A stretch of 64,000 bases of DNA from Candidatus Latescibacterota bacterium (GTDB taxonomy: Bacteria > Latescibacterota > UBA2968 > UBA8231): contig CBDCSU010000006.1 of assembly GCA_965221775.1 (NCBI GenBank), positions 1,120,001 through 1,184,000 of the forward strand. Direction: 5' to 3'. Position numbers and translations under genes: made by a program. A model generated the notes under the pieces. The model saw only the letters and a program-made list of their open reading frames with translations, was not told where the DNA came from and searched no databases. Below are positions 10,290-27,004 of the stretch, piece after piece. How positions within the stretch are numbered: position 1 is the first letter of the stretch; the number at the start of each line of letters is the position of its first letter.

Positions 10290-10532
10290 ATGGTGAACTT
10301 CAGCGTCGAGCTCTCCGACGACGAGCCTTTCGAGCGCGCCCTGCGCCGCTTCACCTCCAAGACCAAGCGCACGGGCCTGATGCGCGACCTCAAGCGCAAG
10401 CGCTTCTACACGAAGCCGTCGGTGCAGAAGAAGCTCGACCTGCAGAAGAGCATCCGCCGCCGCAAGAAGGCGGAGCGCATCGCCCGGCTGGCCGAGATGG
10501 GTCTCGACCGCCGCGGCCGCAAGCGCCGCTAG
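10290..10532 (+). CDS. rpsU: 30S ribosomal protein S21
   Basis: EPFERALRRF...RFYTKPSV basic small protein. SD GAGGAG upstream of ATG 10290. Confidence 0.92.
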   Translation: MVNFSVELSDDEPFERALRRFTSKTKRTGLMRDLKRKRFYTKPSVQKKLDLQKSIRRRKKAERIARLAEMGLDRRGRKRR

Positions 10533-10563
10533 GCCAGCACAGCTTTCGAAGGATCCCTCGGAT

Positions 10564-10599
10564 CGCGGTGCCGGAGTCTCTCCCGGCACCGCGGTTTTT
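10564..10599 (+). terminator. intrinsic terminator after rpsU
   Basis: 11-bp stem CGCGGTGCCGG/CCGGCACCGCG, 8-nt loop, followed by GTTTTT. Confidence 0.85.
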
Positions 10600-10620
10600 C
10601 GTTCTGGGTCCGGGTGCCGC

Positions 10621-11730
10621 TCAGGGCCGGTGGAACTCGGCGGCCACTTCCTCCCCCGCCAGCAGCCATCGCCAGCCGCCGGCCAGGCGATTGCGCCCCG
10701 CCTCCTTCTCCGGGCCTTCCCGCACCAGCGAGCGGACCTCGCCCCGCGTCGCCACCAGCGCCGCGTCGATGCCCCGCGCCGAGGCGCGCTCCTTGACGCG
10801 CTCCGAAGCCGCCCGGGAGCGCATCTCCACTTCGCGGCCGTGGCGGATCCGGGGAGGCCCGGAAGGCCAGTCCCCCGGCTCCAGGTCGAGCCCGGCCCGC
10901 ACCGCCTGCAGGAGGGCCTCGCCGCGGGTGCGGAGGTGCCGCCGCAGGCTCCGGATCTCGCGCAGGTCCTCCATCTCCACCGGCTGACGCTGCGCCAGGA
11001 GCAGCAGCAGCTTGTCCGACGCCACCTGGCCCCGCGGCCGGTCGAGGTCCCGCGCCGCCTCCTCCCGCCAGGCCGCCAACTCGCGCAGCACCGCCAGTTG
11101 CCGGCGGTCGAGCTTGCCGTAGCCCTTGACCCGGCGGAAGGCCTCGCGCGGGTCCCGCTCCTCGTAGAGGGCCGAATCGTCGAGGCCGGCCATCTCCTCC
11201 TGCAGCCAGTCCTCGACGCCGGCGGCGCGAGCCCGGCGGAGAAGCTCCTCGCGGGCCTCCACGAGGTAGCGCACGTCGTCCTCGGCATAGCCGGTCTGCG
11301 TGGGGCTGAGGGGCCGGCGCAGCCAGTCGGTGCGCGTCTCCGTCTTCTCCAGCTCCACCCCGAAGAGCTCCCGGAGCAGGTCGCGCAGGGAGATGGTGTG
11401 GGCCAGGCCCGCGAAACCAGCGGCGATGCGGGTGTCGAAGATGGAGCGCGGCGAGGCGCCGGTGGCCATCCGCAGGACGGTCAGGTCCTGCAGCGCGTCG
11501 TGGAGGATCTTCACCGCGGGGCCGGAGAGCAGCTCGGCGAGAGGCTCGAGGCGTCCCTCGAGAGCGACGGCGTCCACGAGGTGGCAGGCATCGCGCGAGA
11601 AGCCGAGCTGGATGACGCCCAGGGCGGGGTAGAAGGTGCGCTCCCAGACCATCTCCACGTCGATGGCCGTGCGCCCGAGGGTGCGAGCCTCCCCGAGGCG
11701 CTCGGCCAGGCCCTGCTCGCTGTCGATCAA
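10621..11730 (-). CDS. rnd: ribonuclease D (DEDD exonuclease plus HRDC domain)
   Basis: AIDVEM..ERTFYP.LG.IQL, IFDTRIAA, TDWLRRPLS..Q..YAEDDV, WREEAARDLDRPRG. Start placed at TTG 11730 after SD AGGAGGAG. Confidence 0.9.
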   Translation of the reverse strand: MIDSEQGLAERLGEARTLGRTAIDVEMVWERTFYPALGVIQLGFSRDACHLVDAVALEGRLEPLAELLSGPAVKILHDALQDLTVLRMATGASPRSIFDTRIAAGFAGLAHTISLRDLLRELFGVELEKTETRTDWLRRPLSPTQTGYAEDDVRYLVEAREELLRRARAAGVEDWLQEEMAGLDDSALYEERDPREAFRRVKGYGKLDRRQLAVLRELAAWREEAARDLDRPRGQVASDKLLLLLAQRQPVEMEDLREIRSLRRHLRTRGEALLQAVRAGLDLEPGDWPSGPPRIRHGREVEMRSRAASERVKERASARGIDAALVATRGEVRSLVREGPEKEAGRNRLAGGWRWLLAGEEVAAEFHRP

Positions 11731-11819
11731 GAGTGGCTTCTCCTCCTGTTGGCCGGTTCCTCTTCGGAGCAAGAATAGCACCGATGGGTCAAGGAAAGCC
11801 ATCCGCCCATCCGGCGCGG

Positions 11820-18537: not shown

Positions 18538-20481
18538 ATGACGAAGAAGGTCAAGTTCATGTGCACCGCCTTCCGCGACGGCTTCCAGTCCGTGTACGGA
18601 GCGCGGGTGCTCACGCCCGATTTCCTCCCCGCCCTGGAGGCCGCCCGCGAGGCCGGCATCGACTACTTCGAGGCCGGCGGCGGGGCCCGCTTCCAGTCCC
18701 TCTACTTCTACTGCAACGAGGACGCCTTCGACATGATGGACGCCTTCCGCGAGACGGCGGGCCCGGAGGCGAACCTGCAGACCTTGTCGCGGGGCGTAAA
18801 CGTCGTCGGACTCGACTCGCAGCCGAGCGACATCATCAAGCTCCACGCCGACCTCTTCGCCCGCCACGGCATGACGACGATCCGCAACTTCGACGCCCTC
18901 AACGACGTGGACAATCTCGTCCACTCGGGGCGCTGCATCGTCGAGGCGGGTCTCAAGCACCAGGTCTGCGTCACCATGATGGCCCTGCCGCCGGGGTGCC
19001 GCGGCGCCCACGACCCGGCTTTCTACACCGAGACCCTGCGCAAGATCCTCGACGCCGAGATCCCCTTCGACTCGGTCTGCTTCAAGGACGCCTCCGGCAC
19101 GGCGGTGCCGGCCACCGTCTTCGAGACCATCGTGCAGGCCCGGCGCCTGCTGCCGGAGGGCACCTTCATCCACTTCCACACCCACGAGACCGCCGGCATC
19201 TCGGTGCAGGCCTACAACGCCGCCCTCGACGCCGGCGCGGACGCCATCGACCTGTCGCTGGCGCCGGTCTCGGGCGGCACCTGCCAGCCCGACGTGCTGG
19301 TCATGTGGCACGCCCTGCGCGCCACCGAGTACGACCTCGACATCGACGTCGACAAGGTCCGCGAGGCGGAAGAGGTCTTCAAGGAGTGCATGCGCGACTA
19401 CTACCTGCCGCCCGAGGCGGTGGCGGTGGAGCCCATGATCCCCTGGAGCCCCATGCCCGGAGGCGCGCTCACCGCCAACACCCAGATGCTGCGCGACAAC
19501 GGCATCATGGACCGCTACCCGGAGATGATCCGCGCCATGGGCGACGTCGTCGAGCGCGGCGGCTTCGGCACCTCGGTGACGCCGGTGTCGCAGTTCTATT
19601 TCCAGCAGGCCTTCAACAACGTCATGCTCGGCCCGTGGGAGCGCATCGCCGACGACTACGGGCGCATGGTCCTCGGGTACTTCGGCAAGACCCCGGTGCC
19701 GCCCGATCCCGAGGTCGTGGCCCGGGCCAGCGAGCAGCTCGGTCTGAAGCCGACCGACCGGCCTCCCCTGGAGCTGAACGACGCCGACCCGAAGAAGGGT
19801 GCCGGCCCGGCCCGCGAGCGCCTCAAGGCGGAGGGCCTGGAGACCACCGACGAGAGCATCTTCATCGCCGCCGCCTGCGGCGACAAGGGCATCGCCTTCC
19901 TCAAGGGCGAGGCCGAGCTGGGGGTCCGAAAGACCGGCGACGAGGTGCCCGCGAAACCGGCGCCCGCGCCACCGGCCCCGCAACCGACGACACCCGCTCC
20001 TGCTGAGCCGCCGCCGCCCGCACCCGTCCCCGAAGGTCCGGCGTCCTACTCGGTCAAGGTGGAGGGCCGCTCCTACACCGTCGTCGTCGAAGGCGACAAG
20101 GTGAGGGTTGGCGACAAGACCTACGACGTGAGCGCCGACGAAGGCGGCCAGCCCGCTGCCGCCGAGAGCGCCCCCGCGGCGCCGGCCGCCGCCCCGGCGG
20201 AGAGCGCGGCGCCTCCCGCCGCGCCCAGCGCCCCCGGCCCCGCAACCGAGGCCGCGGGCGGCACGGTGCCCGTGGAGTCGCACATGCCCGGCAAGGTGGT
20301 GCGCATCGTCGCCGAGCCGGGAACCGCCGTCAGCGACGGCGACGCGGTGATCATGATCGAGGCGATGAAGATGGAAGTGCCCGTGCCCTCCCCCGTGAGC
20401 GGCACCGTCGTCTCGGTGGCGGTCTCGGCGGGCGACCAGGTCGGCGAGTCGCAGGTGCTCGCGGCGGTGCGGCCGGACTGA
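18538..20481 (+). CDS. oadA: oxaloacetate decarboxylase alpha-like subunit (carboxyltransferase plus biotin carrier)
   Basis: FRDGFQS, GGGARF, FKDASG, HTH metal motif, Pro/Ala linker, EAMKM biotinylation site. Confidence 0.9.
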   Translation: MTKKVKFMCTAFRDGFQSVYGARVLTPDFLPALEAAREAGIDYFEAGGGARFQSLYFYCNEDAFDMMDAFRETAGPEANLQTLSRGVNVVGLDSQPSDIIKLHADLFARHGMTTIRNFDALNDVDNLVHSGRCIVEAGLKHQVCVTMMALPPGCRGAHDPAFYTETLRKILDAEIPFDSVCFKDASGTAVPATVFETIVQARRLLPEGTFIHFHTHETAGISVQAYNAALDAGADAIDLSLAPVSGGTCQPDVLVMWHALRATEYDLDIDVDKVREAEEVFKECMRDYYLPPEAVAVEPMIPWSPMPGGALTANTQMLRDNGIMDRYPEMIRAMGDVVERGGFGTSVTPVSQFYFQQAFNNVMLGPWERIADDYGRMVLGYFGKTPVPPDPEVVARASEQLGLKPTDRPPLELNDADPKKGAGPARERLKAEGLETTDESIFIAAACGDKGIAFLKGEAELGVRKTGDEVPAKPAPAPPAPQPTTPAPAEPPPPAPVPEGPASYSVKVEGRSYTVVVEGDKVRVGDKTYDVSADEGGQPAAAESAPAAPAAAPAESAAPPAAPSAPGPATEAAGGTVPVESHMPGKVVRIVAEPGTAVSDGDAVIMIEAMKMEVPVPSPVSGTVVSVAVSAGDQVGESQVLAAVRPD

Positions 20482-20534
20482 TCCACCCAACCCCTCCAGA
20501 ACAAGCCACAGTCACGAATGAGGGAAACCCCCCC

Positions 20535-21977
20535 GTGAATGCAAACGATTGGACCACCGTACCTGGCTGGGATGCGGCGAAGCACGAGTACGTCGAACTC
20601 GACTGCGAACGCTGGATCAGGGAAAACAAGATCCGTGAGGCTGGACGCGACAACGGGAGGCAGAACTTCCCGCCCTCGGAAGCGGTCCAACCTGACGAGA
20701 TGTACATGAAAATTCTGGCTTGGGTGAACCAGCGAGGCAAAGGGTGCTACGCGGCGGTCGGCGATTACCTCGTCCAGCAACGTGAGGCCCTCGAACGCGA
20801 AGTGAAGGAGGGAATGGCCCCCATCCGGAACCGGGTAGAAGGGATGAGGGACGAGGGCATCCAGGCCCTGACCGACCAGGCCACGGAGGATCACACAAAC
20901 CTGCAGCAGAAGAAGCACGAAGCCCGCGAGGCTTGGACGGCGTTGGAGAGAACAAAGGCAGAAGCAAACCTCAAACGGGTGGCGGAGTACGACGGAAGAG
21001 ACTCTTGGTACGGGTGGTTGATCGGGATCGTCATTGTGGAAGTGGTGTTCAACGCCGGGATGCTCGCGGCAGTGCACGAACACGGCCTGCTGGGCGCCGT
21101 AGGGACCATGGCTTTCATCGCAATCGTGAACGCTGTCTTCCTGGCCGGGATGATCGGTGAGGGATGGCGGCTCAAGAACTCGCACGATCTGTTACCAAAG
21201 TCCGCCGGCTGGCTCCTGATAGCCGTGGGGGCATCGGGAACGCTGGTCTTCAACCTCCTCGTGGGTCACTTCCGGGATAGCATGCAGGCGGTGACTGCAA
21301 GGGCCACCGCAAGTACCCTGAGCGAACTGTTGGCCGACGACACCTTTGAGAGGTTCGCAAACAACCCCTTCGGGCTTGAGGGAATGCTCTCAGGGCTCCT
21401 CGTAGCCATCGGGACCGGGTGCTGCTTCTTTGCCGCCACCAAGTGGCTGAAACGAGACGACGTCTATCCCGGGTATGGAGCGCGGCATCGTGCGGCAACC
21501 CAACACAACGGCGAATTCCTGCGGGAACTTGAGGCCCGCCGGGAGAAACTCAACAGCATCCACAAGGAGTACATCGAGAAGATCAGAGACCAACGGCTCC
21601 AAGTGGAAAACAGGACTGGGGTCGAAACACAGATCACCGAGACAGCCAAGTCGATCGTGGACCAATTCTCCATGCAACTTGGCCAGTACCAGCACCACTT
21701 GGATTTCATCCTCGCTGCGTACAGATCCGAGAACGAGAAAGCCCGCACCACGGCGCCTCCTGGATTCTTCGCTGAGCCATTCTCGATCGATCCCGAGATG
21801 CTGAAACCACCGTCTTTCAGGGGGGTCCGCACTCCCAATCCTCTGGATTCCAGTTGGGAGGGGTTTCAACAAGCCGAGAAGGCGATCCGCACAGCATACC
21901 AGGAGGCGCAGAAGGGCTACCCAACCCTGGAGGCGTGGATGGGAGACCGCACGGGGGAGCCCGAGAATGAACAGTGA
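20535..21977 (+). CDS. hypothetical 4-TM membrane protein with flanking coiled coils
   Basis: Four hydrophobic segments (with intramembrane E/N) between long helical regions, DDVYPGYG motif. Overlaps the next gene by 11 nt. Confidence 0.8.
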   Translation: MNANDWTTVPGWDAAKHEYVELDCERWIRENKIREAGRDNGRQNFPPSEAVQPDEMYMKILAWVNQRGKGCYAAVGDYLVQQREALEREVKEGMAPIRNRVEGMRDEGIQALTDQATEDHTNLQQKKHEAREAWTALERTKAEANLKRVAEYDGRDSWYGWLIGIVIVEVVFNAGMLAAVHEHGLLGAVGTMAFIAIVNAVFLAGMIGEGWRLKNSHDLLPKSAGWLLIAVGASGTLVFNLLVGHFRDSMQAVTARATASTLSELLADDTFERFANNPFGLEGMLSGLLVAIGTGCCFFAATKWLKRDDVYPGYGARHRAATQHNGEFLRELEARREKLNSIHKEYIEKIRDQRLQVENRTGVETQITETAKSIVDQFSMQLGQYQHHLDFILAAYRSENEKARTTAPPGFFAEPFSIDPEMLKPPSFRGVRTPNPLDSSWEGFQQAEKAIRTAYQEAQKGYPTLEAWMGDRTGEPENEQ

Positions 21978-22794
21978 GTCCCGCGGCCAGCGCCAAGCCA
22001 AGCACCGACGCCGAACGAGGCTTTTCGTCTTTATCGTTGTGCCTCTGGTGGCCTGCCTGTGGGTCTACCTCTCGACAAAAGAGGCCGAACCCCTCGACGA
22101 CCAAGGGTGCCCAAGAGAGACCGGCCCAACCCGCGAGGTGCTCTTGCTGGTCGACACCTCCGACCCCCTGACCGACAAGCACAAGGAAGAGCTGGGCCGG
22201 ATCCTGCGCGAGATGACGAGTCCGGCCTCAACCGGCCGCCACGACGAGATGGCCGTGAGAAAGGGCGAACGAGTGACGCTCTACGGGCTGGAGGGCGCCG
22301 AGATTCCACGGAAGCCCCTCGCCCAGATCTGCCACCCCGGGGGGAATCCCGAAGAGCGGGAGCGATTCAGCGAACTAACAAGAGGCTCGGTGATCACCCA
22401 ATGGCACTGGGAGAACTTCAAGAAGGTGATTGAGGGAATGTTCCCGAGGGATACGTCCGAGGCGCAGCCCTCGTCTCCAATCCTCGAAGCCCTCGCGGTC
22501 ATCACCCCCCGCCACTCACACAGCCGCCGCGCGGCCGAGGACGCAAGACCCACCCACCTGATCATCATATCCGACCTGCTCCAGAACACGCCGATTCTCT
22601 CTCATTACACGTCGTATCCGCCCCCTCAAGAGATACCGCGTGAACTGCGGACGGATCTCTCCCGTGTGGAGGTCAGCCTCTTCCGATTGGAGAGGCACAA
22701 GTACGAGATCTATCAGACGCCGGAACACTACTACTGGTGGACTGACTTGATCGAGGAGTTGGGAGGAAAGGTGGTATGGCAACAGGCACTGTAG
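21967..22794 (+). CDS. membrane-anchored vWA-like protein
   Basis: Basic N-terminus plus one TM, MIDAS-like LLLVDTSD, SPILEAL, LIIISDLLQN. Confidence 0.65.
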   Translation: MNSESRGQRQAKHRRRTRLFVFIVVPLVACLWVYLSTKEAEPLDDQGCPRETGPTREVLLLVDTSDPLTDKHKEELGRILREMTSPASTGRHDEMAVRKGERVTLYGLEGAEIPRKPLAQICHPGGNPEERERFSELTRGSVITQWHWENFKKVIEGMFPRDTSEAQPSSPILEALAVITPRHSHSRRAAEDARPTHLIIISDLLQNTPILSHYTSYPPPQEIPRELRTDLSRVEVSLFRLERHKYEIYQTPEHYYWWTDLIEELGGKVVWQQAL

Positions 22795-24203
22795 AAAAGG
22801 GCCGGCGCCGCCTGTTTCAAACAGAGAGAGCCTTCCAGCGGGCCTTTTGGGTCGGATTTCTCCTGATTCCGGTGGTGAAACTGGTCGCCCAAGGGGCGCC
22901 GATCATTGGCGGGTTCGTTGCGGCCGCACTCGGGATCCTCATCATGGGGTTCTACAGATCCGAGCAAACCCAGGTCCGTCCACCGCATGAACACCCTCGC
23001 CTGGGTGATGAGGTCTATTACCTCGGGTTGCTGTATACGCTCACCTCTCTCTGTGCGGCCCTCGTCACTCTGTTTCTACTGCAGGGGACAGAGCAGACCC
23101 TGGAGAGGCGCACCGACGAGATGATCGGCAGCTTCGGGATTGCGCTTCTCACAACCATGGCCGGGATCGTCCTGCGCATGGACCTGCAGGGCCACGCGCC
23201 CGAGGATCAAGACGTAGACGTCAGCCGCGACCTGGAGCGCTATGCTCGTGAGCTCCGCAGGCAACTCGAGAGCTCCGCCAACGCCTTCGCATCCCACGCC
23301 AACAAGACGATCCTGCAGGCAAAGACCACTCATGCCCACATGGATGAATTGATGCAGACCTTCCATCGGGGGCTGGAAGAGAAGGCGAAGGCCGAGCTGG
23401 CCCGCCTGCAGGCGCTCCACGAATCCGCCGCCGACAGCGCCGAGCAGGCACTCCGCCGGACAGAGGCCCAGCAGGAAGGGATCCACACCGCCCTGCAGGG
23501 CTTCCAGGCGCAAGTGACCGCCATGGACGAGAGCATCGAACGCATCCGAGTTGGAAGCGAGGCGACGGCCACGCACCTGGGTACGATCGGCGCACTGGCG
23601 GAGCAGAGCGTCAAGGTGGGGCACGACTGGGTAACCATCCAGCACCAGGCGAACGGGGCCATGGGCGAAATGCAGCAGACCACCCGGGAACTGGCCACGC
23701 TTGGCCACGAGGCACAACGCACGAGCGCCGAGCTGGCTGCTTTGCCCGATGGGCTCCGAACAGCCACGGCTGAGGTGGAGAAACTCACCGAGGCCACAAC
23801 CGCCAGCAAGGCGATGGCAGACCTGGAGGTCAACGCCACGGCGGTGGCCCGGAACCTCGCTGCCATTGCCGATGCCGGCCAGTTGCACCACGAGGCCATC
23901 GGCGCCGCCGTGGAGAAGCTCCAGGCCCTTGCGGAGACGGCAAGCCAGGACTTCGCGGCCCAAGGCCAGCTGAAGGAGGCGATCGTCCAACTCGCCGAGG
24001 TGGCGGCGACCGCGGCCAGTTACACGCAGAGTTTGAAAAGCACGTTGCGGGAGGTGCAGGGCATCAATTCAGAGCTGAAGAGCGTGCAAACTGCGCTGCG
24101 CGACGAAGGGACAGATCTCGCCACGCAGCTGCGGGCGGCCATCGCTGCGTTGGAGGAAGCAAGGCGTAGTGACAGCGCATGGAAGCGCTTTTTTGGAGGC
24201 TAG
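22776..24203 (+). CDS. MotA/TolQ/ExbB-like (ZorA-like) membrane protein with long C-terminal helical tail
   Basis: Four TMs including YYLGLLYTLTSL and FGIALLTTMAGIVLR (MotA/ExbB G..GT and AL.TT..G helices), then more than 300 aa of Ala/Gln/Glu-rich heptad sequence ending in AWKRFFGG. Confidence 0.7.
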   Translation: MATGTVEKGRRRLFQTERAFQRAFWVGFLLIPVVKLVAQGAPIIGGFVAAALGILIMGFYRSEQTQVRPPHEHPRLGDEVYYLGLLYTLTSLCAALVTLFLLQGTEQTLERRTDEMIGSFGIALLTTMAGIVLRMDLQGHAPEDQDVDVSRDLERYARELRRQLESSANAFASHANKTILQAKTTHAHMDELMQTFHRGLEEKAKAELARLQALHESAADSAEQALRRTEAQQEGIHTALQGFQAQVTAMDESIERIRVGSEATATHLGTIGALAEQSVKVGHDWVTIQHQANGAMGEMQQTTRELATLGHEAQRTSAELAALPDGLRTATAEVEKLTEATTASKAMADLEVNATAVARNLAAIADAGQLHHEAIGAAVEKLQALAETASQDFAAQGQLKEAIVQLAEVAATAASYTQSLKSTLREVQGINSELKSVQTALRDEGTDLATQLRAAIAALEEARRSDSAWKRFFGG

Positions 24204-24212
24204 CTCGACACC

Positions 24213-25631
24213 ATGGAGATGGAGGAAGGATATCGGCGAGGCGCAGTCCTGGGCCTGACGATTGCCGAGATATTCATCCTCCTGGTCTTCCTCATGCTGC
24301 TCGCTCTCATGGGGGTAAACCGCTACTGGGGCGGTAAGCTGGACCCTTGGAAGTCCATCATTGACCAGCACACCCCGGAGGAGGTCGGCGCGGCTCTGAA
24401 GCACCCGGACCAGCAGGGGCGTGAAATCGCAAGGCTTACCCGCCAGATTGAAGATCTGACAAGGCAGAAGGAACGGCTTCAGGAGCGAATCCGAACGCTG
24501 GAGGACAGAGAGGGGACAGCCGGAGAGTTGCTTGATGAGGCCGAAGAGGAGCTACGGGAGCTCGGTAACACACTGGCCGAGCAAGAACAAGCCCTCGCGC
24601 AGGCCAACGACAAGATTCGCATCATCGGCAAGGGAATCACCCCGCCCTGCTGGTACCAACGCGTCCAGGAGACCAACCCCATCACCCAGGCCAACTGGCG
24701 GGAGAAGCCGTACTACCTGTTCGACATCGCCCTCCGTGAGGACCACATGGAGGTTCAGAGGCTTCCGGTCCCGGAGGGATCTGCGGAGGACGACAACGGG
24801 CGCCCCTACGCCGCTGAAGCGAAGGACCTTCCGCTGGACGAAATCCCCTACGGGGAGCGGCTTACGGACGTTGAGATGCGCCGCGCCATGAGTCCGCTAT
24901 ACGAGAGAGCCAAGGCATCCCAAGTCAGGACCTATTCTTGCATTTTCTATGTACGCGTCTGGGACGAGACTCCCTCAGGCGCAAAAGACCGATGGAAACA
25001 GGCTCATGATGGAGTGCTGGAGCAACTCTTCGGTACGCATCAAGTCCGTGGAACATCATGGGAAGACCGGGGCCAGGAGCCCGTGAACGTTCGAGTGGAT
25101 CAGGGGGGCCGGGAGCCCGTGAACGTCGGAGGGAATCTGGATTTGCGGGACTTGGAGATCGCGCCGGAGACCAGGTGTTCCGAGTATGACAGGGAGCGGG
25201 ACTATCCTTATTCCCAGTCTCTCGAACGTCAAATTCTGCAAGAGTTGGGAGCGATCCGCTGCATGTACACTGACAGGGTCTTCGATTCTCTTCACGATAC
25301 GGAGATCGAGCACATCGTTGCGTTGAGCGAAGCCCATGATTCCGGCTTGTGCAGCGCGGATGCGGAGACCCGGCGAGAGTTCAGCAGCGACTTGCTGAAT
25401 CTGACATTGGCTGATCCCCAGGTGAACCGGCAGAAGGGCGACAAGGACCCTGGCGAGTGGCTTCCGCAGGTCAACCGTCTTTGGTACGCCCGCCGGGTCC
25501 TTGCAGTAAAGCGCAAGTATGGTCTGACAATCGACCGGAGGGAACAGGAAGCCTTGCAGGAAGTCCTGCTGAATCTCGAGACCGCTGCCAAGTCAGCTCC
25601 AGCAGGTTCTAGCGCGGACTCGCTGCAGTGA
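24213..25631 (+). CDS. MotB/ZorB-like single-TM protein fused to C-terminal HNH (DUF1524-like) nuclease
   Basis: N-terminal TM with acidic residue (LTIAEIFILLVFLMLL), coiled coil, PPCW..YLFD domain, then EIEHIVALSEAHDSG...NLTLA...VNRQKGDKD..EWLP. Confidence 0.7.
   Translation: MEMEEGYRRGAVLGLTIAEIFILLVFLMLLALMGVNRYWGGKLDPWKSIIDQHTPEEVGAALKHPDQQGREIARLTRQIEDLTRQKERLQERIRTLEDREGTAGELLDEAEEELRELGNTLAEQEQALAQANDKIRIIGKGITPPCWYQRVQETNPITQANWREKPYYLFDIALREDHMEVQRLPVPEGSAEDDNGRPYAAEAKDLPLDEIPYGERLTDVEMRRAMSPLYERAKASQVRTYSCIFYVRVWDETPSGAKDRWKQAHDGVLEQLFGTHQVRGTSWEDRGQEPVNVRVDQGGREPVNVGGNLDLRDLEIAPETRCSEYDRERDYPYSQSLERQILQELGAIRCMYTDRVFDSLHDTEIEHIVALSEAHDSGLCSADAETRREFSSDLLNLTLADPQVNRQKGDKDPGEWLPQVNRLWYARRVLAVKRKYGLTIDRREQEALQEVLLNLETAAKSAPAGSSADSLQ
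25071..25142 (+). repeat. 36-bp imperfect in-frame tandem duplication (GQEPVNVRVDQG / GREPVNVGGNLD)
   Basis: ggccaggagcccgtgaacgt at 25071 and ggccgggagcccgtgaacgt at 25107. Confidence 0.85.
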
Positions 25632-25692
25632 CACTCACCTGATGGGGCCGGGGCGCCGAGCCTCCCTGCCCCACCCGCACTCCGATCCCGCC

Positions 25693-26490
25693 ATGCCCGC
25701 TACCCGGTCAGACCCACCCCCACTGCCGGTGACAGTGGCCCGAATCAGTCGAGGCGGCAGCGTCCGACCCGTCTGGCAGAATGCGCTTGGAGGCACCACC
25801 TACGAGCTGACCGCCGGCGCCTCCCGGTCCTTTCTGAAGTGGGCACCCGCCGAGAGCCCCATCGACCTGTCCGAGGAGCGCCACCGCCTTGAATGGGCCG
25901 TACGCTATGCGAGCGTACCGATGGTGCTTGACCATGGCGCCGAGTTCGATGGGTCCTGGCTCCTCACACGAGGGTTGCCCGGCGAGAGTGCCGTCTCTTC
26001 CCGTTGGCTCAGTGATCCGCAAGCTGCTGTCCGAGCCATAGGCGCAGGGCTCCGCGCACTCCATGACGATCTCCCTGCCACCGAATGCCCGTTCAGCTGG
26101 TCGCTCATGGACCGCCGTAGTGACATTCACCGACGAGCACGTGCAGGACTCCTCGACCCCGACACGTGGCATGCGGACCATCGCGCCCTCACGATCGACC
26201 AGGCCCTGGCCCGCCTGCAGCGCAGTCCGCCCGAGGACGACCTCGTCGTGTGTCACGGCGATACCTGCGCTCCAAACACCATCATTGGTTCGCAGGGACA
26301 GTGCACTGGCCATGTAGACCTCGGCTCTCTGGGCGTGGCGGATCGTTGGGCAGACATCGCCATAGCGACATGGAGCACGACATGGAACTACGGCCACGGC
26401 TGGGAATCCACGCTTCTGGATGCATATGGCATGGACCCTGAGCCGAGCCGCATCGCCTACTACCGCCTGCTCTACGATCTCGGACCCTGA
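25693..26490 (+). CDS. aminoglycoside 3'-phosphotransferase family protein
   Basis: FLKW, E..RLEW, VCHGDTCAPN (Brenner motif), VDLGSLGVADRWADIA, YYRLLYDL. Start could be 25642 or 25693. Confidence 0.85.
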   Translation: MPATRSDPPPLPVTVARISRGGSVRPVWQNALGGTTYELTAGASRSFLKWAPAESPIDLSEERHRLEWAVRYASVPMVLDHGAEFDGSWLLTRGLPGESAVSSRWLSDPQAAVRAIGAGLRALHDDLPATECPFSWSLMDRRSDIHRRARAGLLDPDTWHADHRALTIDQALARLQRSPPEDDLVVCHGDTCAPNTIIGSQGQCTGHVDLGSLGVADRWADIAIATWSTTWNYGHGWESTLLDAYGMDPEPSRIAYYRLLYDLGP

Positions 26491-26512
26491 GGGCGAGGAT
26501 ATGTGAGAGCAT

Positions 26513-27004
26513 ATGATCGTTCGAATATCAGCCAAGCTCGGCAAGAAGATCGGTCTGAGCCCGGACAGGGTTCTTCCCGCCGACCCCAGTCCATTCGCCG
26601 ACTGGTCGGCCCACTTGTTCACGGCCGAGCGAACTCAATACATCCTGATCTCGAACACGGCATCCCTCTACTCCATGGTGATGTTTGGCAGAGGCATCAC
26701 CGATGATTGTCGCTTCCTGGATCGGATGACGAGCTACATGCGGGAATTCCTTCGAGCAGATCGCCACGGGTTCATCTTCGAGCGGTTGATCATGCCGCGG
26801 CTGGATCGGGTGAACTTTTCCAAGGCACTCAACCGATCCGTAATCGGTTCGATGAACGATCTCGTCTTCCAGGCTCAGCTTCATCTCATCGAAGGCGCCA
26901 TGCCGCCGGTTGATGTATCGTTTCGCTTGAATGAAGTGCCAATGTCGTATCTGGAGCATTTCACTCCACGAGCGTCCTTTCAGCACCTTGCTCCCGCTAC
27001 CTGA
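26513..27004 (+). CDS. DUF6933-like protein
   Basis: MIVRISAKLGKKI, WSAHLF, N..SLYS, NRSVIGSMND, LNEVPM pattern. Confidence 0.6.
   Translation: MIVRISAKLGKKIGLSPDRVLPADPSPFADWSAHLFTAERTQYILISNTASLYSMVMFGRGITDDCRFLDRMTSYMREFLRADRHGFIFERLIMPRLDRVNFSKALNRSVIGSMNDLVFQAQLHLIEGAMPPVDVSFRLNEVPMSYLEHFTPRASFQHLAPAT

Follow-up and report, generated by a model that had tools for sequence, protein, structure and literature searches.

In a 64,000-nucleotide (nt) stretch of the genome of Candidatus Latescibacterota bacterium (contig CBDCSU010000006.1, positions 1,120,001 to 1,184,000; hereafter the window, to which all coordinates refer unless another locus is named), the segment 20482-25690 is a self-contained, horizontally moved membrane module of four genes. 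Genes 3 and 4 of this module were shown, through weak but consistent sequence signals, to possess a putative stator architecture of the ZorA/ZorB type (MotA/MotB superfamily), and gene 4 additionally carries a nuclease domain. We propose that these genes represent an undescribed Zorya-like motor module which, by means of extracytoplasmic nuclease chemistry, would act in envelope-level DNA defence; taken as a whole, this statement has in our judgment an even chance of being correct. The features of the module are listed below.

20482-25690, plus strand: inserted unit of 5.2 kb with exactly four genes, delimited by the empty site in the same-genus genome G166
20535-21977, plus strand: gene 1, open reading frame (ORF) of 480 amino acids (aa)
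21967-22794, plus strand: gene 2, ORF of 275 aa
22776-24203, plus strand: gene 3, ORF of 475 aa, putative ZorA/MotA-like A subunit
23037-23156, plus strand: hairpin of transmembrane (TM) helix 3, loop and TM4 in gene 3, from codon T88 (23037-23039) to codon T127 (23154-23156), which aligns with the ZorA/ExbB pore hairpin
24213-25631, plus strand: gene 4, ORF of 472 aa, putative ZorB/MotB-like B subunit with a nuclease fusion
24267-24269, plus strand: Glu19 codon of gene 4, predicted membrane-embedded acidic residue, from the orthologue alignment
24630-25097, plus strand: predicted periplasmic head of gene 4, residues 140-295, from AlphaFold2 and conservation
25149-25592, plus strand: GmrSD_C/DUF1524-type His-Me (HNH) nuclease domain of gene 4, from PF07510 and the conserved motif

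The gene spacing reported in a preliminary description of this DNA, with overlaps of 11 nt between genes 1 and 2 and 19 nt between genes 2 and 3 and a gap of 9 nt before gene 4, is present, all four ORFs are co-directional, and the patch of lower GC content was likewise recovered (0.60-0.65 over ~20.5-27 kb vs 0.68-0.75 on the flanks). At the same site, genome G166 has an oxaloacetate decarboxylase alpha gene, a 91-bp spacer and an APH-like gene; in a junction BLAST, the flank homology (92-93%) ended at window position 20481 and restarted at 25691. Since G166 has just the 91-bp spacer at this location, the window segment is a clean 5.2-kb insertion. Visual inspection of the insertion junction, where no dedicated repeat search was run, revealed no terminal repeats, and no integrase was identified for the unit. 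A tRNA scan found none within the window, and a scan for promoters and terminators gave a signal no higher than in shuffled sequences. The module is preceded by the oxaloacetate decarboxylase operon (OAD_beta) and followed by an APH(3')-like gene and a DUF6933 gene.

Co-conservation of the four genes, on which the preliminary description depended, was borne out by the retention of the order g1-g2-g3-g4 in 31/33 assessable loci, which span Latescibacterota, Alpha- and Gammaproteobacteria, Binatia and five rhizobial/Tistrella plasmids. The gene-3 profile identified nine genome loci, all with the complete order, while L005 was cut by a contig end. The order was also retained in 6/6 far more distant same-phylum relatives (gene-3 N-domain E ~1e-16 to 1e-19), in 5/5 alphaproteobacterial plasmids, one copy being flanked by insertion sequence (IS) elements, and in 11 of another 13 loci, drawn from 401 evenly sampled Alphaproteobacteria, with L085 and L091 having g1-g2 only; in L092 and L093, our home-made hidden Markov model (HMM) missed gene 4, which was identified by visual inspection. 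The distribution is patchy: the gene-3 N-domain was found in 10/168 genomes of the phylum and 0/9 other genomes of the genus, and the gene-2 profile in 14/401 of the sampled Alphaproteobacteria. Together with the empty site and the plasmid copies, this supports an accessory, horizontally moved module. With homologues of each of the four proteins numbering in the hundreds and a gene order that is retained across phyla, the features described here are above chance. None of the four protein families has a Pfam family, and most records call the members 'hypothetical'. In L063 (NZ_CP023066.1), the public labels are 'methyl-accepting chemotaxis protein' for the gene-3 homologue and 'DMT family transporter' for the gene-1 homologue, both probably misnomers prompted by coiled-coil and TM composition. 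A literature search, in which supplementary neighbourhood tables were not covered, found no paper describing the four-gene cassette.

The preliminary description had noted MotA/ExbB-type helices and a helical tail of more than 300 residues in gene 3. Its motif FGIALLTTMAG is present at residues 120-130, hydropathy analysis gave four hydrophobic helices (residues 23-41, 41-59, 84-102 and 115-133), and 342 residues follow the last of these. The tail contains 0.3% Pro and displays a hydrophobic periodicity of 3.47 residues (power 149 vs 48 +/- 10 in shuffles). TM3 carries the sequence GLLYT with T88 and TM4 the sequence ALLTT with T127, and neither residue varies among 92 distant members of the gene-3 family, whose N-domain is represented by 1711 cluster representatives at E <= 0.001 (469 at <= 1e-10). 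Gene 3 therefore has the conserved Thr/Ser pair on two predicted pore-lining helices that is characteristic of MotA/TolQ/ExbB. Using ZorA-like genes of the same phylum, rather than E. coli ZorA, as templates, hhalign placed GLLYT opposite GILGTF and ALLTT opposite AFxTS (P 4.7e-4, probability 32%). In E. coli ZorA, residues Thr147 and Ser184 contact Asp26 of ZorB (PMC11946911), and we infer that T88 and T127 correspond to these two residues.

Further similarity was found among the distant family members. PF01618 matched 4/92 of them at E <= 0.01 (best 3.5e-4, 20.8 bits, below the cut-off of 22.9), and in P0289, one PF01618-matching member that was examined closely, the match lies on the hairpin at residues 67-127. 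The ZorA1 model PDLC00601 matched 48/92. Among ten members examined closely, a colinear ZorA match from hairpin to tail was seen in two, P0285 and P0357; the former aligned with ZorA1 PDLC00595 over residues 77-325 to 148-391 (E 1.1e-7). An AlphaFold2 model of gene 3 residues 1-175, with a predicted local distance difference test score (pLDDT) of 79, displayed a four-helix membrane domain and the start of the tail. Homology of gene 3 to the MotA/ZorA superfamily is, on these sequence comparisons, quite probable. The tails are not identical in design: gene 3 and its orthologues have a periodicity of 3.47-3.56 (window 23223-24200), the 3.47 of gene 3 itself being that of a heptad, vs 3.53-3.65 in ZorA of the same phylum (L014-L017), which suggests a supercoil handedness or bundle geometry different from that of ZorA tails.

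Gene 4, situated directly 3' of the A-subunit gene, has the organization expected of a B subunit, with a single N-terminal TM (residues 17-35 by hydropathy) that bears an acidic residue, as the preliminary description had noted; this residue, Glu19, is invariant and lies near the cytoplasmic end of the TM. Glu19 is invariant in 9 close orthologues, conserved to at least 90% in 42 homologues, and Glu is also found in the more distant loci examined. In the orthologues examined it forms part of a (T/M)x(A/T)E motif, and the TM is near-invariant (YRRGxVLGLTIAEIFILLVFLMLLAL). The TM is followed by a coiled-coil stalk of ~75 residues (~60-135) whose length varies among orthologues, an alpha/beta head (~140-295), a linker and the nuclease (~313-460). 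Within the head lie a PPCWY motif and two invariant cysteines, Cys146 and Cys243. AlphaFold2 modelled this domain with confidence, giving 10-residue block-mean pLDDT values of 73-98 (mostly 84-98) and the strand/helix order b-b-b-b-a-a-b-a-b. A Foldseek search of the Protein Data Bank (PDB) with the periplasmic model returned no significant relative (best E 0.07), the weak rows being uS11, MreB and sugar kinases; these rows and the strand order offer an RNase H-like fold for the head as a lead only. Sequence searches of the PDB with gene 4, the gene-1 and gene-2 profiles and two plasmid proteins gave nothing useful.

The absence of an OmpA-type motif from the window gene 4 was also confirmed, as no PF00691 match was obtained. 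Relatives of gene 4 on 5/5 plasmids and in L087 and L089 possess the same TM(AE) and stalk with a divergent OmpA-like end domain (PF00691 23.1 and 19.4 bits, below the cut-off of 27.2; one record is named 'OmpA family protein' by PGAP), and an OmpA-like head on TM(AE) plus stalk is the architecture of MotB and ZorB. The head of gene 4 was in this way shown to be an exchangeable module, a new alpha/beta domain in the window and a divergent OmpA-like domain in the plasmid relatives. Another gene-4 orthologue, at L001 9638-11524 (plus strand, 628 aa), bears a different, Cys-rich C-terminal extension of ~330 aa that matched neither nuclease HMM and for which the precomputed cluster Pfam is PF27978. 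It is worth noting that the window's own genome, G000 (96.8% complete), has four MotA/ExbB/TolQ genes and no PF00691 match at E <= 0.001, the latter being odd for a presumably diderm bacterium.

Several observations weigh against our proposal, some of them bearing on the motor, as given here, and others on the defensive role, which are taken up further below. The window gene 3 has no PF01618 match; its ZorA1 match (7e-5) is confined to the coiled-coil tail (153-461), and ZorA matches in general fall mostly on the tail, where the coiled coils of JetC and LmuB match too. The hhalign comparisons of gene 3 were weak with both ZorA (probability 32%) and MotA/ExbB (9.6%). Foldseek, a check named in the preliminary description, gave no PDB match at E <= 0.001 with either the gene-3 TM model or the gene-4 periplasmic model; for gene 3 there were only weak rows for TolQ, PomA, ExbB and ZorA chains (E 0.17-1.1, TM-scores 0.2-0.3), and a PDB sequence search with gene 3 yielded nothing useful. 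The gene-4 TM resembles the TMs of ZorB and ExbD/TolR, but a profile comparison with them was weak and covered a short segment (P 0.008 and 0.0016). Asp is the residue matching Glu19 in MotB and, within the phylum itself, in ZorB and ExbD/TolR, and it has been called 'universally conserved' (PMC11946911). A predicted complex of four copies of gene 3 (1-150) and two of gene 4 (1-60), a 4:2 and not the natural 5:2 stoichiometry, scored 0.19 vs a mark of 0.32 and counts neither for nor against the assembly.

With direct statistics weak throughout and ZorA matches mainly on a low-complexity tail shared with JetC and LmuB, genes 3 and 4 could be unrelated coiled-coil membrane proteins whose likeness to ZorA/ZorB is convergent. 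We consider this improbable. The matches that include the TM helices are colinear and in the correct register; T88, T127 and the acidic TM residue are invariant, the family comprising 1711 cluster representatives (E <= 0.001); the A gene precedes the B gene, as in MotAB and ZorAB; and the B subunit has an OmpA-like head in one clade. The putative stator also shares with MotA/MotB a four-TM A subunit, an adjacent B gene and, in the plasmid-clade B subunits, an OmpA-like peptidoglycan-binding head. It differs from MotA/MotB in having no PF01618 or PF00691 match above threshold and no flagellar context. MotA has a large torque-generating cytoplasmic domain between TM2 and TM3, whereas the corresponding loop of gene 3 has just ~24 residues.

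The nuclease at the C-terminal end of gene 4 was identified by PF07510 (43.4 bits, cut-off 23, E 4e-11, residues 347-450), so that the fusion to the B subunit reported in the preliminary description is real. Its motif E366-H367...N396...N405 is intact and invariant in 28 homologues, and a Cys pair, C322/C380, is conserved. E/D-H-N-N is the GmrD motif, and the E-H-N-N form occurs in the periplasmic nuclease Vvn (PMC4619093). The HNH part is ~60% identical to stand-alone PF07510+Excalibur proteins, and the nucleases of L002, L003, P0210 and P0216 have signal peptides (judged by eye) and then the APE-RCSEY sequence with which the fused domain also begins; on this comparison, the fused domain is the counterpart of the mature part of secreted stand-alone nucleases. 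The domain resembles secreted His-Me nucleases (DUF1524/GmrSD_C + Excalibur, Vvn-type) in its E-H-N-N motif, its Cys pair and its homologues with signal peptides, and differs from them in being covalently tethered to a stator B subunit; unlike type IV restriction enzymes, it lacks a GmrS (DUF262) partner domain. Since the stand-alone homologues have signal peptides, the nuclease would be periplasmic. The OmpA-like heads, the Cys pairs, the signal-peptide homologues and the N-in orientation that gene 4 would have by analogy with MotB and ZorB place the whole of its C-terminal part in the periplasm, and the periplasmic location of the predicted His-Me nuclease was thereby shown, to the extent that homology and analogy allow.

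This location has a direct bearing on a cytoplasmic, ZorE-like effector role for the nuclease, which was not sustained: the PF07510 homologues carry signal peptides and the domain lies at that end of the B subunit which faces the periplasm. ZorE, for its part, is an HNH nuclease. It serves type II Zorya as an effector (PMC11946911), and the ZorA-like tail and the matches to ZorA models would suit a further Zorya subtype in which the fused HNH domain acts on phage DNA in the cytoplasm. We regard such a subtype as very improbable, given that no ZorB, ZorC, ZorD, ZorE, ZorF or ZorG model matched at E <= 0.1, that a PF07510 nuclease with these homologues and this position is largely refuted by topology as a cytoplasmic enzyme, and that most orthologues have no nuclease. 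The missing matches cover all four proteins in the case of ZorB and, for ZorC/D/E/F/G, the four genes and two neighbours, which agrees with the preliminary description in its finding of no zorC/D/E-like gene; also as expected there, PADLOC matched no named system to the four genes. The module is not Zorya as defined, because the features of ZorB (Asp and the OmpA-like domain) and the effector genes are absent.

The module shares several features with Zorya. As in ZorA5B2 (PMC11946911), the putative A subunit joins a TM hairpin of MotA-like type, including a Thr/Ser filter, to a very long cytoplasmic helical tail, and as in ZorB (PMC11946911), a single TM with an acidic residue precedes a periplasmic head with disulfides; like Zorya, the module is accessory and horizontally spread. 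Unlike Zorya, gene 4 has Glu19 where ZorB has Asp26, and its head is carried on a coiled-coil stalk of ~75 residues, whereas the ZorB head sits directly on the TM. The window head is a new alpha/beta domain, an OmpA-like one being found in the plasmid clade only. Instead of ZorC/D/E/F/G there are two extra membrane proteins, genes 1 and 2, and the nuclease, where present, would be periplasmic.

PF07510 was found in 6/88 gene-4 homologues (the first 88 among the matches listed), most orthologues being ~270-335 aa long; the fusion, which the preliminary description had treated as a trait of the system, is therefore a minority add-on and not part of the core. Exported nucleases of two unrelated folds were fused or adjacent in 9/33 loci, in a census by three home-made HMMs that other nuclease families would escape.

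Window: HNH nuclease, fused to gene 4
L002, L003: HNH nuclease, adjacent to gene 4
L063, L064, L065, L067, L088: thermonuclease, adjacent to gene 4
L089: thermonuclease, fused behind the OmpA-like head of gene 4

The L089 fusion (10341-11807, plus strand) is a single ORF of 488 aa comprising TM(AE), coiled coil, OmpA-like domain and thermonuclease. That gene 4 was joined at the same end to two unrelated nucleases in independent events, in the window and in L089, points to a functional link between nuclease and module.

The product of gene 2 has a basic N-terminus (7 K+R in 18 aa), one TM (19-37 by hydropathy) and then an alpha/beta-type domain of ~220 aa, features which show it to be a predicted N-in, inner-membrane (IM)-anchored protein with a periplasmic domain. 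Conserved within it are a Cys pair, C48/C122, and the motifs LLxD-T-S-D-P, SSPILE and IIISDLLQN. These recall the beta1/metal ion-dependent adhesion site (MIDAS) and beta4 of vWA domains, and the domain is possibly a degenerate vWA/Rossmann-like one; the first motif reads D63-x-S/T65-D-P and not DxSxS as in the vWA MIDAS. The label 'vWA' given in the preliminary description was not confirmed. Gene 2 has no Pfam, NCBIfam or PDB sequence match, and of its 460 homologues the 120 matches listed include no Pfam domain. An hhalign comparison with VWA_2 domains of its own genome was weak (P = 0.002 over 50 columns, beta1-alpha1-beta2), and in an Atlas search a VWA_2 cluster appeared only at rank 29 (score 0.84) among otherwise unnamed clusters.

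An A/B pair with a third protein that has one N-terminal IM helix and a periplasmic globular domain is also the layout of ExbB-ExbD-TonB and TolQ-TolR-TolA, and TolQ-like motors with IM-tethered vWA proteins have been described in which the vWA domains were proposed as new force transducers (PMC12204202). Unlike the third proteins of ExbB-ExbD-TonB/TolQ-TolR-TolA, gene 2 has a TM devoid of acidic residues and of any conserved motif of the His/SHLS type, and unlike in the vWA-tethered motors, its vWA fold is only a candidate one; ExbB-ExbD-TonB/TolQ-type systems, for their part, are without a long A-subunit tail, gene 1 or nucleases. Instead of serving immunity, the module could be a nutritional or DNA-processing machine whose motor powers the capture of extracellular DNA and its degradation in the periplasm, as a source of nucleotides or phosphate or for DNA uptake, with gene 2 and the gene-4 head binding a substrate or an outer-membrane partner in the manner of TonB/TolA. 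We consider this rather unlikely. The recurrent partners of the module are secreted thermonuclease and DUF1524+Excalibur nucleases, kinds that are typical extracellular DNases. The layout with an IM-anchored periplasmic protein of the force-transducer sort (PMC12204202) would suit such a machine as well, and the flanks are largely metabolic. Against this, the loci examined have no conserved neighbour for outer-membrane transport or for nucleoside/phosphate uptake, the module's patchiness (10/168 and 14/401) and its plasmid and IS-flanked copies fit accessory or defence cargo, and a cytoplasmic tail of 340 residues has no obvious role in uptake.

Gene 1 encodes a 4-TM protein, as had been described, with hydropathy helices at 162-180, 185-203, 225-243 and 281-299 between a predicted cytoplasmic helical N-domain (1-160) and C-domain (300-480). 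Polar residues E169, N173, N199, N240, H245, R247, D309, Y311 and P312 are invariant across distant orthologues. No Pfam or NCBIfam family matched and no GTPase domain was found, while the Atlas search returned unnamed clusters only. LeoBC of Eleos was considered and rejected: the PADLOC match (1.3e-7) is distrusted because it was seen in just 1/13 gene-1 orthologues, that of the window alone. In L047 (1718-7457, minus strand), and in that locus only, three bacterial dynamin-like genes with PDB matches to BDLP, IniA and 5owv lie directly downstream of gene 4 and are co-directional with it, and PspA genes account for two of the flank ORFs.

Such neighbours, together with the long, helical, membrane-proximal gene 1 and gene-3 tail and the 24/33 loci without a nuclease, are consistent with a module for envelope integrity or membrane stress (Tol/Psp/dynamin-like) that has no DNA role and in which nucleases are occasional passengers. 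This explanation is, in our estimation, unlikely. Two independent fusions of unrelated nucleases at the same gene-4 end, together with seven adjacencies, are hardly due to chance; the module is missing in 9/9 other same-genus genomes and therefore is not housekeeping; and the LeoBC match of gene 1 is limited to 1/13 orthologues.

Returning to defence at the level of the envelope, directed at foreign DNA that enters by phage infection, conjugation or transformation, we favor this as the most likely role, plausible but unproven, at a confidence somewhat short of even. Defence-like or mobile neighbours of the module include AAA_21/AAA_15 ATPases, DUF5131, helix-turn-helix (HTH) proteins, IS elements on a plasmid and the dynamin-like genes of L047 mentioned above. 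At E <= 1e-8, PADLOC matched LeoA (3), LeoBC (2), mad3 (2), AriA (2) and AbiLi (2) among 97 flank ORFs from 10 genomes, with single matches to PDC-S01, CARF_ADA, HEC-01A/B, PDC-M25A, PDC-M07A and PDC-M72A; these counts are raw, without control loci, and 3/10 of the loci are syntenic kin. The LeoA and LeoBC matches probably come from the dynamin-like genes of L047. Because there is no control set and three loci are kin, the flank matches are a hint only. The immediate neighbours vary by locus and are mostly metabolic or housekeeping genes (PhyH, EutN, TatC, LytB and aminotransferases), and a search of phage records for gene 2 gave 0 matches. With a nuclease in just 9/33 loci, the core must function without one. 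Phage DNA is usually shielded while crossing the periplasm, and for that reason a periplasmic nuclease would be odd as an anti-phage weapon.

If the proposal is nonetheless followed, the products of genes 3 and 4 would assemble into an A5B2-like complex, and proton flow through Glu19, T88 and T127 would turn or gate it. The periplasmic gene-4 head, together with gene 2, would provide the trigger by sensing or binding an envelope cue; the gene-3 tail and gene 1 might relay the signal on the cytoplasmic side; and the tethered or co-encoded exported nuclease would cut DNA in the periplasm. The fullest form of this scheme is a new, periplasmic class of Glu-based 5:2 motor immunity in which a ZorAB-like stator, assisted by the other two membrane proteins, detects DNA entry or a breach of the envelope and deploys its tethered or co-secreted nuclease before the DNA reaches the cytoplasm, with the head (alpha/beta or OmpA-like) and the nuclease (His-Me or SNase) both swappable; we offer it as a speculative model that may well be wrong. 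Overall, the notion of an ion-motor system distinct from known Zorya stands with respect to gene order, the ZorA/ZorB-like signals and the absence of a PADLOC system, while the vWA label was not confirmed and the cytoplasmic effector role was not sustained, and defence would follow from these features only by inference.

The surroundings of the insertion were also inspected. The APH(3')-like phosphotransferase at 25642-26490 matched Pfam APH (1.1e-24) and NCBIfam APH_3p (187.1 bits, below the cut-off of 205). Its annotated, longer start is probably wrong, since the same-genus orthologue begins at a Met matching window position 25690. The DUF6933 protein at 26513-27004 (PF22016, 3.9e-31) has a weak PADLOC candidate match, PDC-S63 (2.7e-4), and its gene is kept beside the hotspot in other genomes of the genus. 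This variable hotspot extends from the oxaloacetate decarboxylase alpha gene to DUF6933 (window 20482-26512; G165, G160, G167 and G166, corresponding to L049-L052), and elsewhere in the genus it contains either the APH-like gene alone or different cargo of 1.3, 2.9 or 4.1 kb, which includes large ORFs (698 and 840 aa) and, judging by eye, likely acetyltransferases of the GNAT-like kind. At least half of the words sampled from the cassette occur in each of six listed sequencing runs, of which two, with shares of 0.80 and 0.66, carry the label sponge metagenome, and no RNA run is among the listed runs containing the cassette.

In the literature consulted, a motor of the flagellar-stator type underlies no accessory or defence system other than Zorya. 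If our proposal is true, the module would constitute a second widespread stator-based accessory family, which would mean that the motor has been recruited repeatedly. The family would differ in its proton-carrying residue, its stalked and exchangeable head, its two new membrane partners and its extracytoplasmic nucleases. It would make testable the idea of a bacterial attack on foreign DNA in the periplasm that is powered by the proton motive force, and four unnamed protein families would gain an entry point for study.

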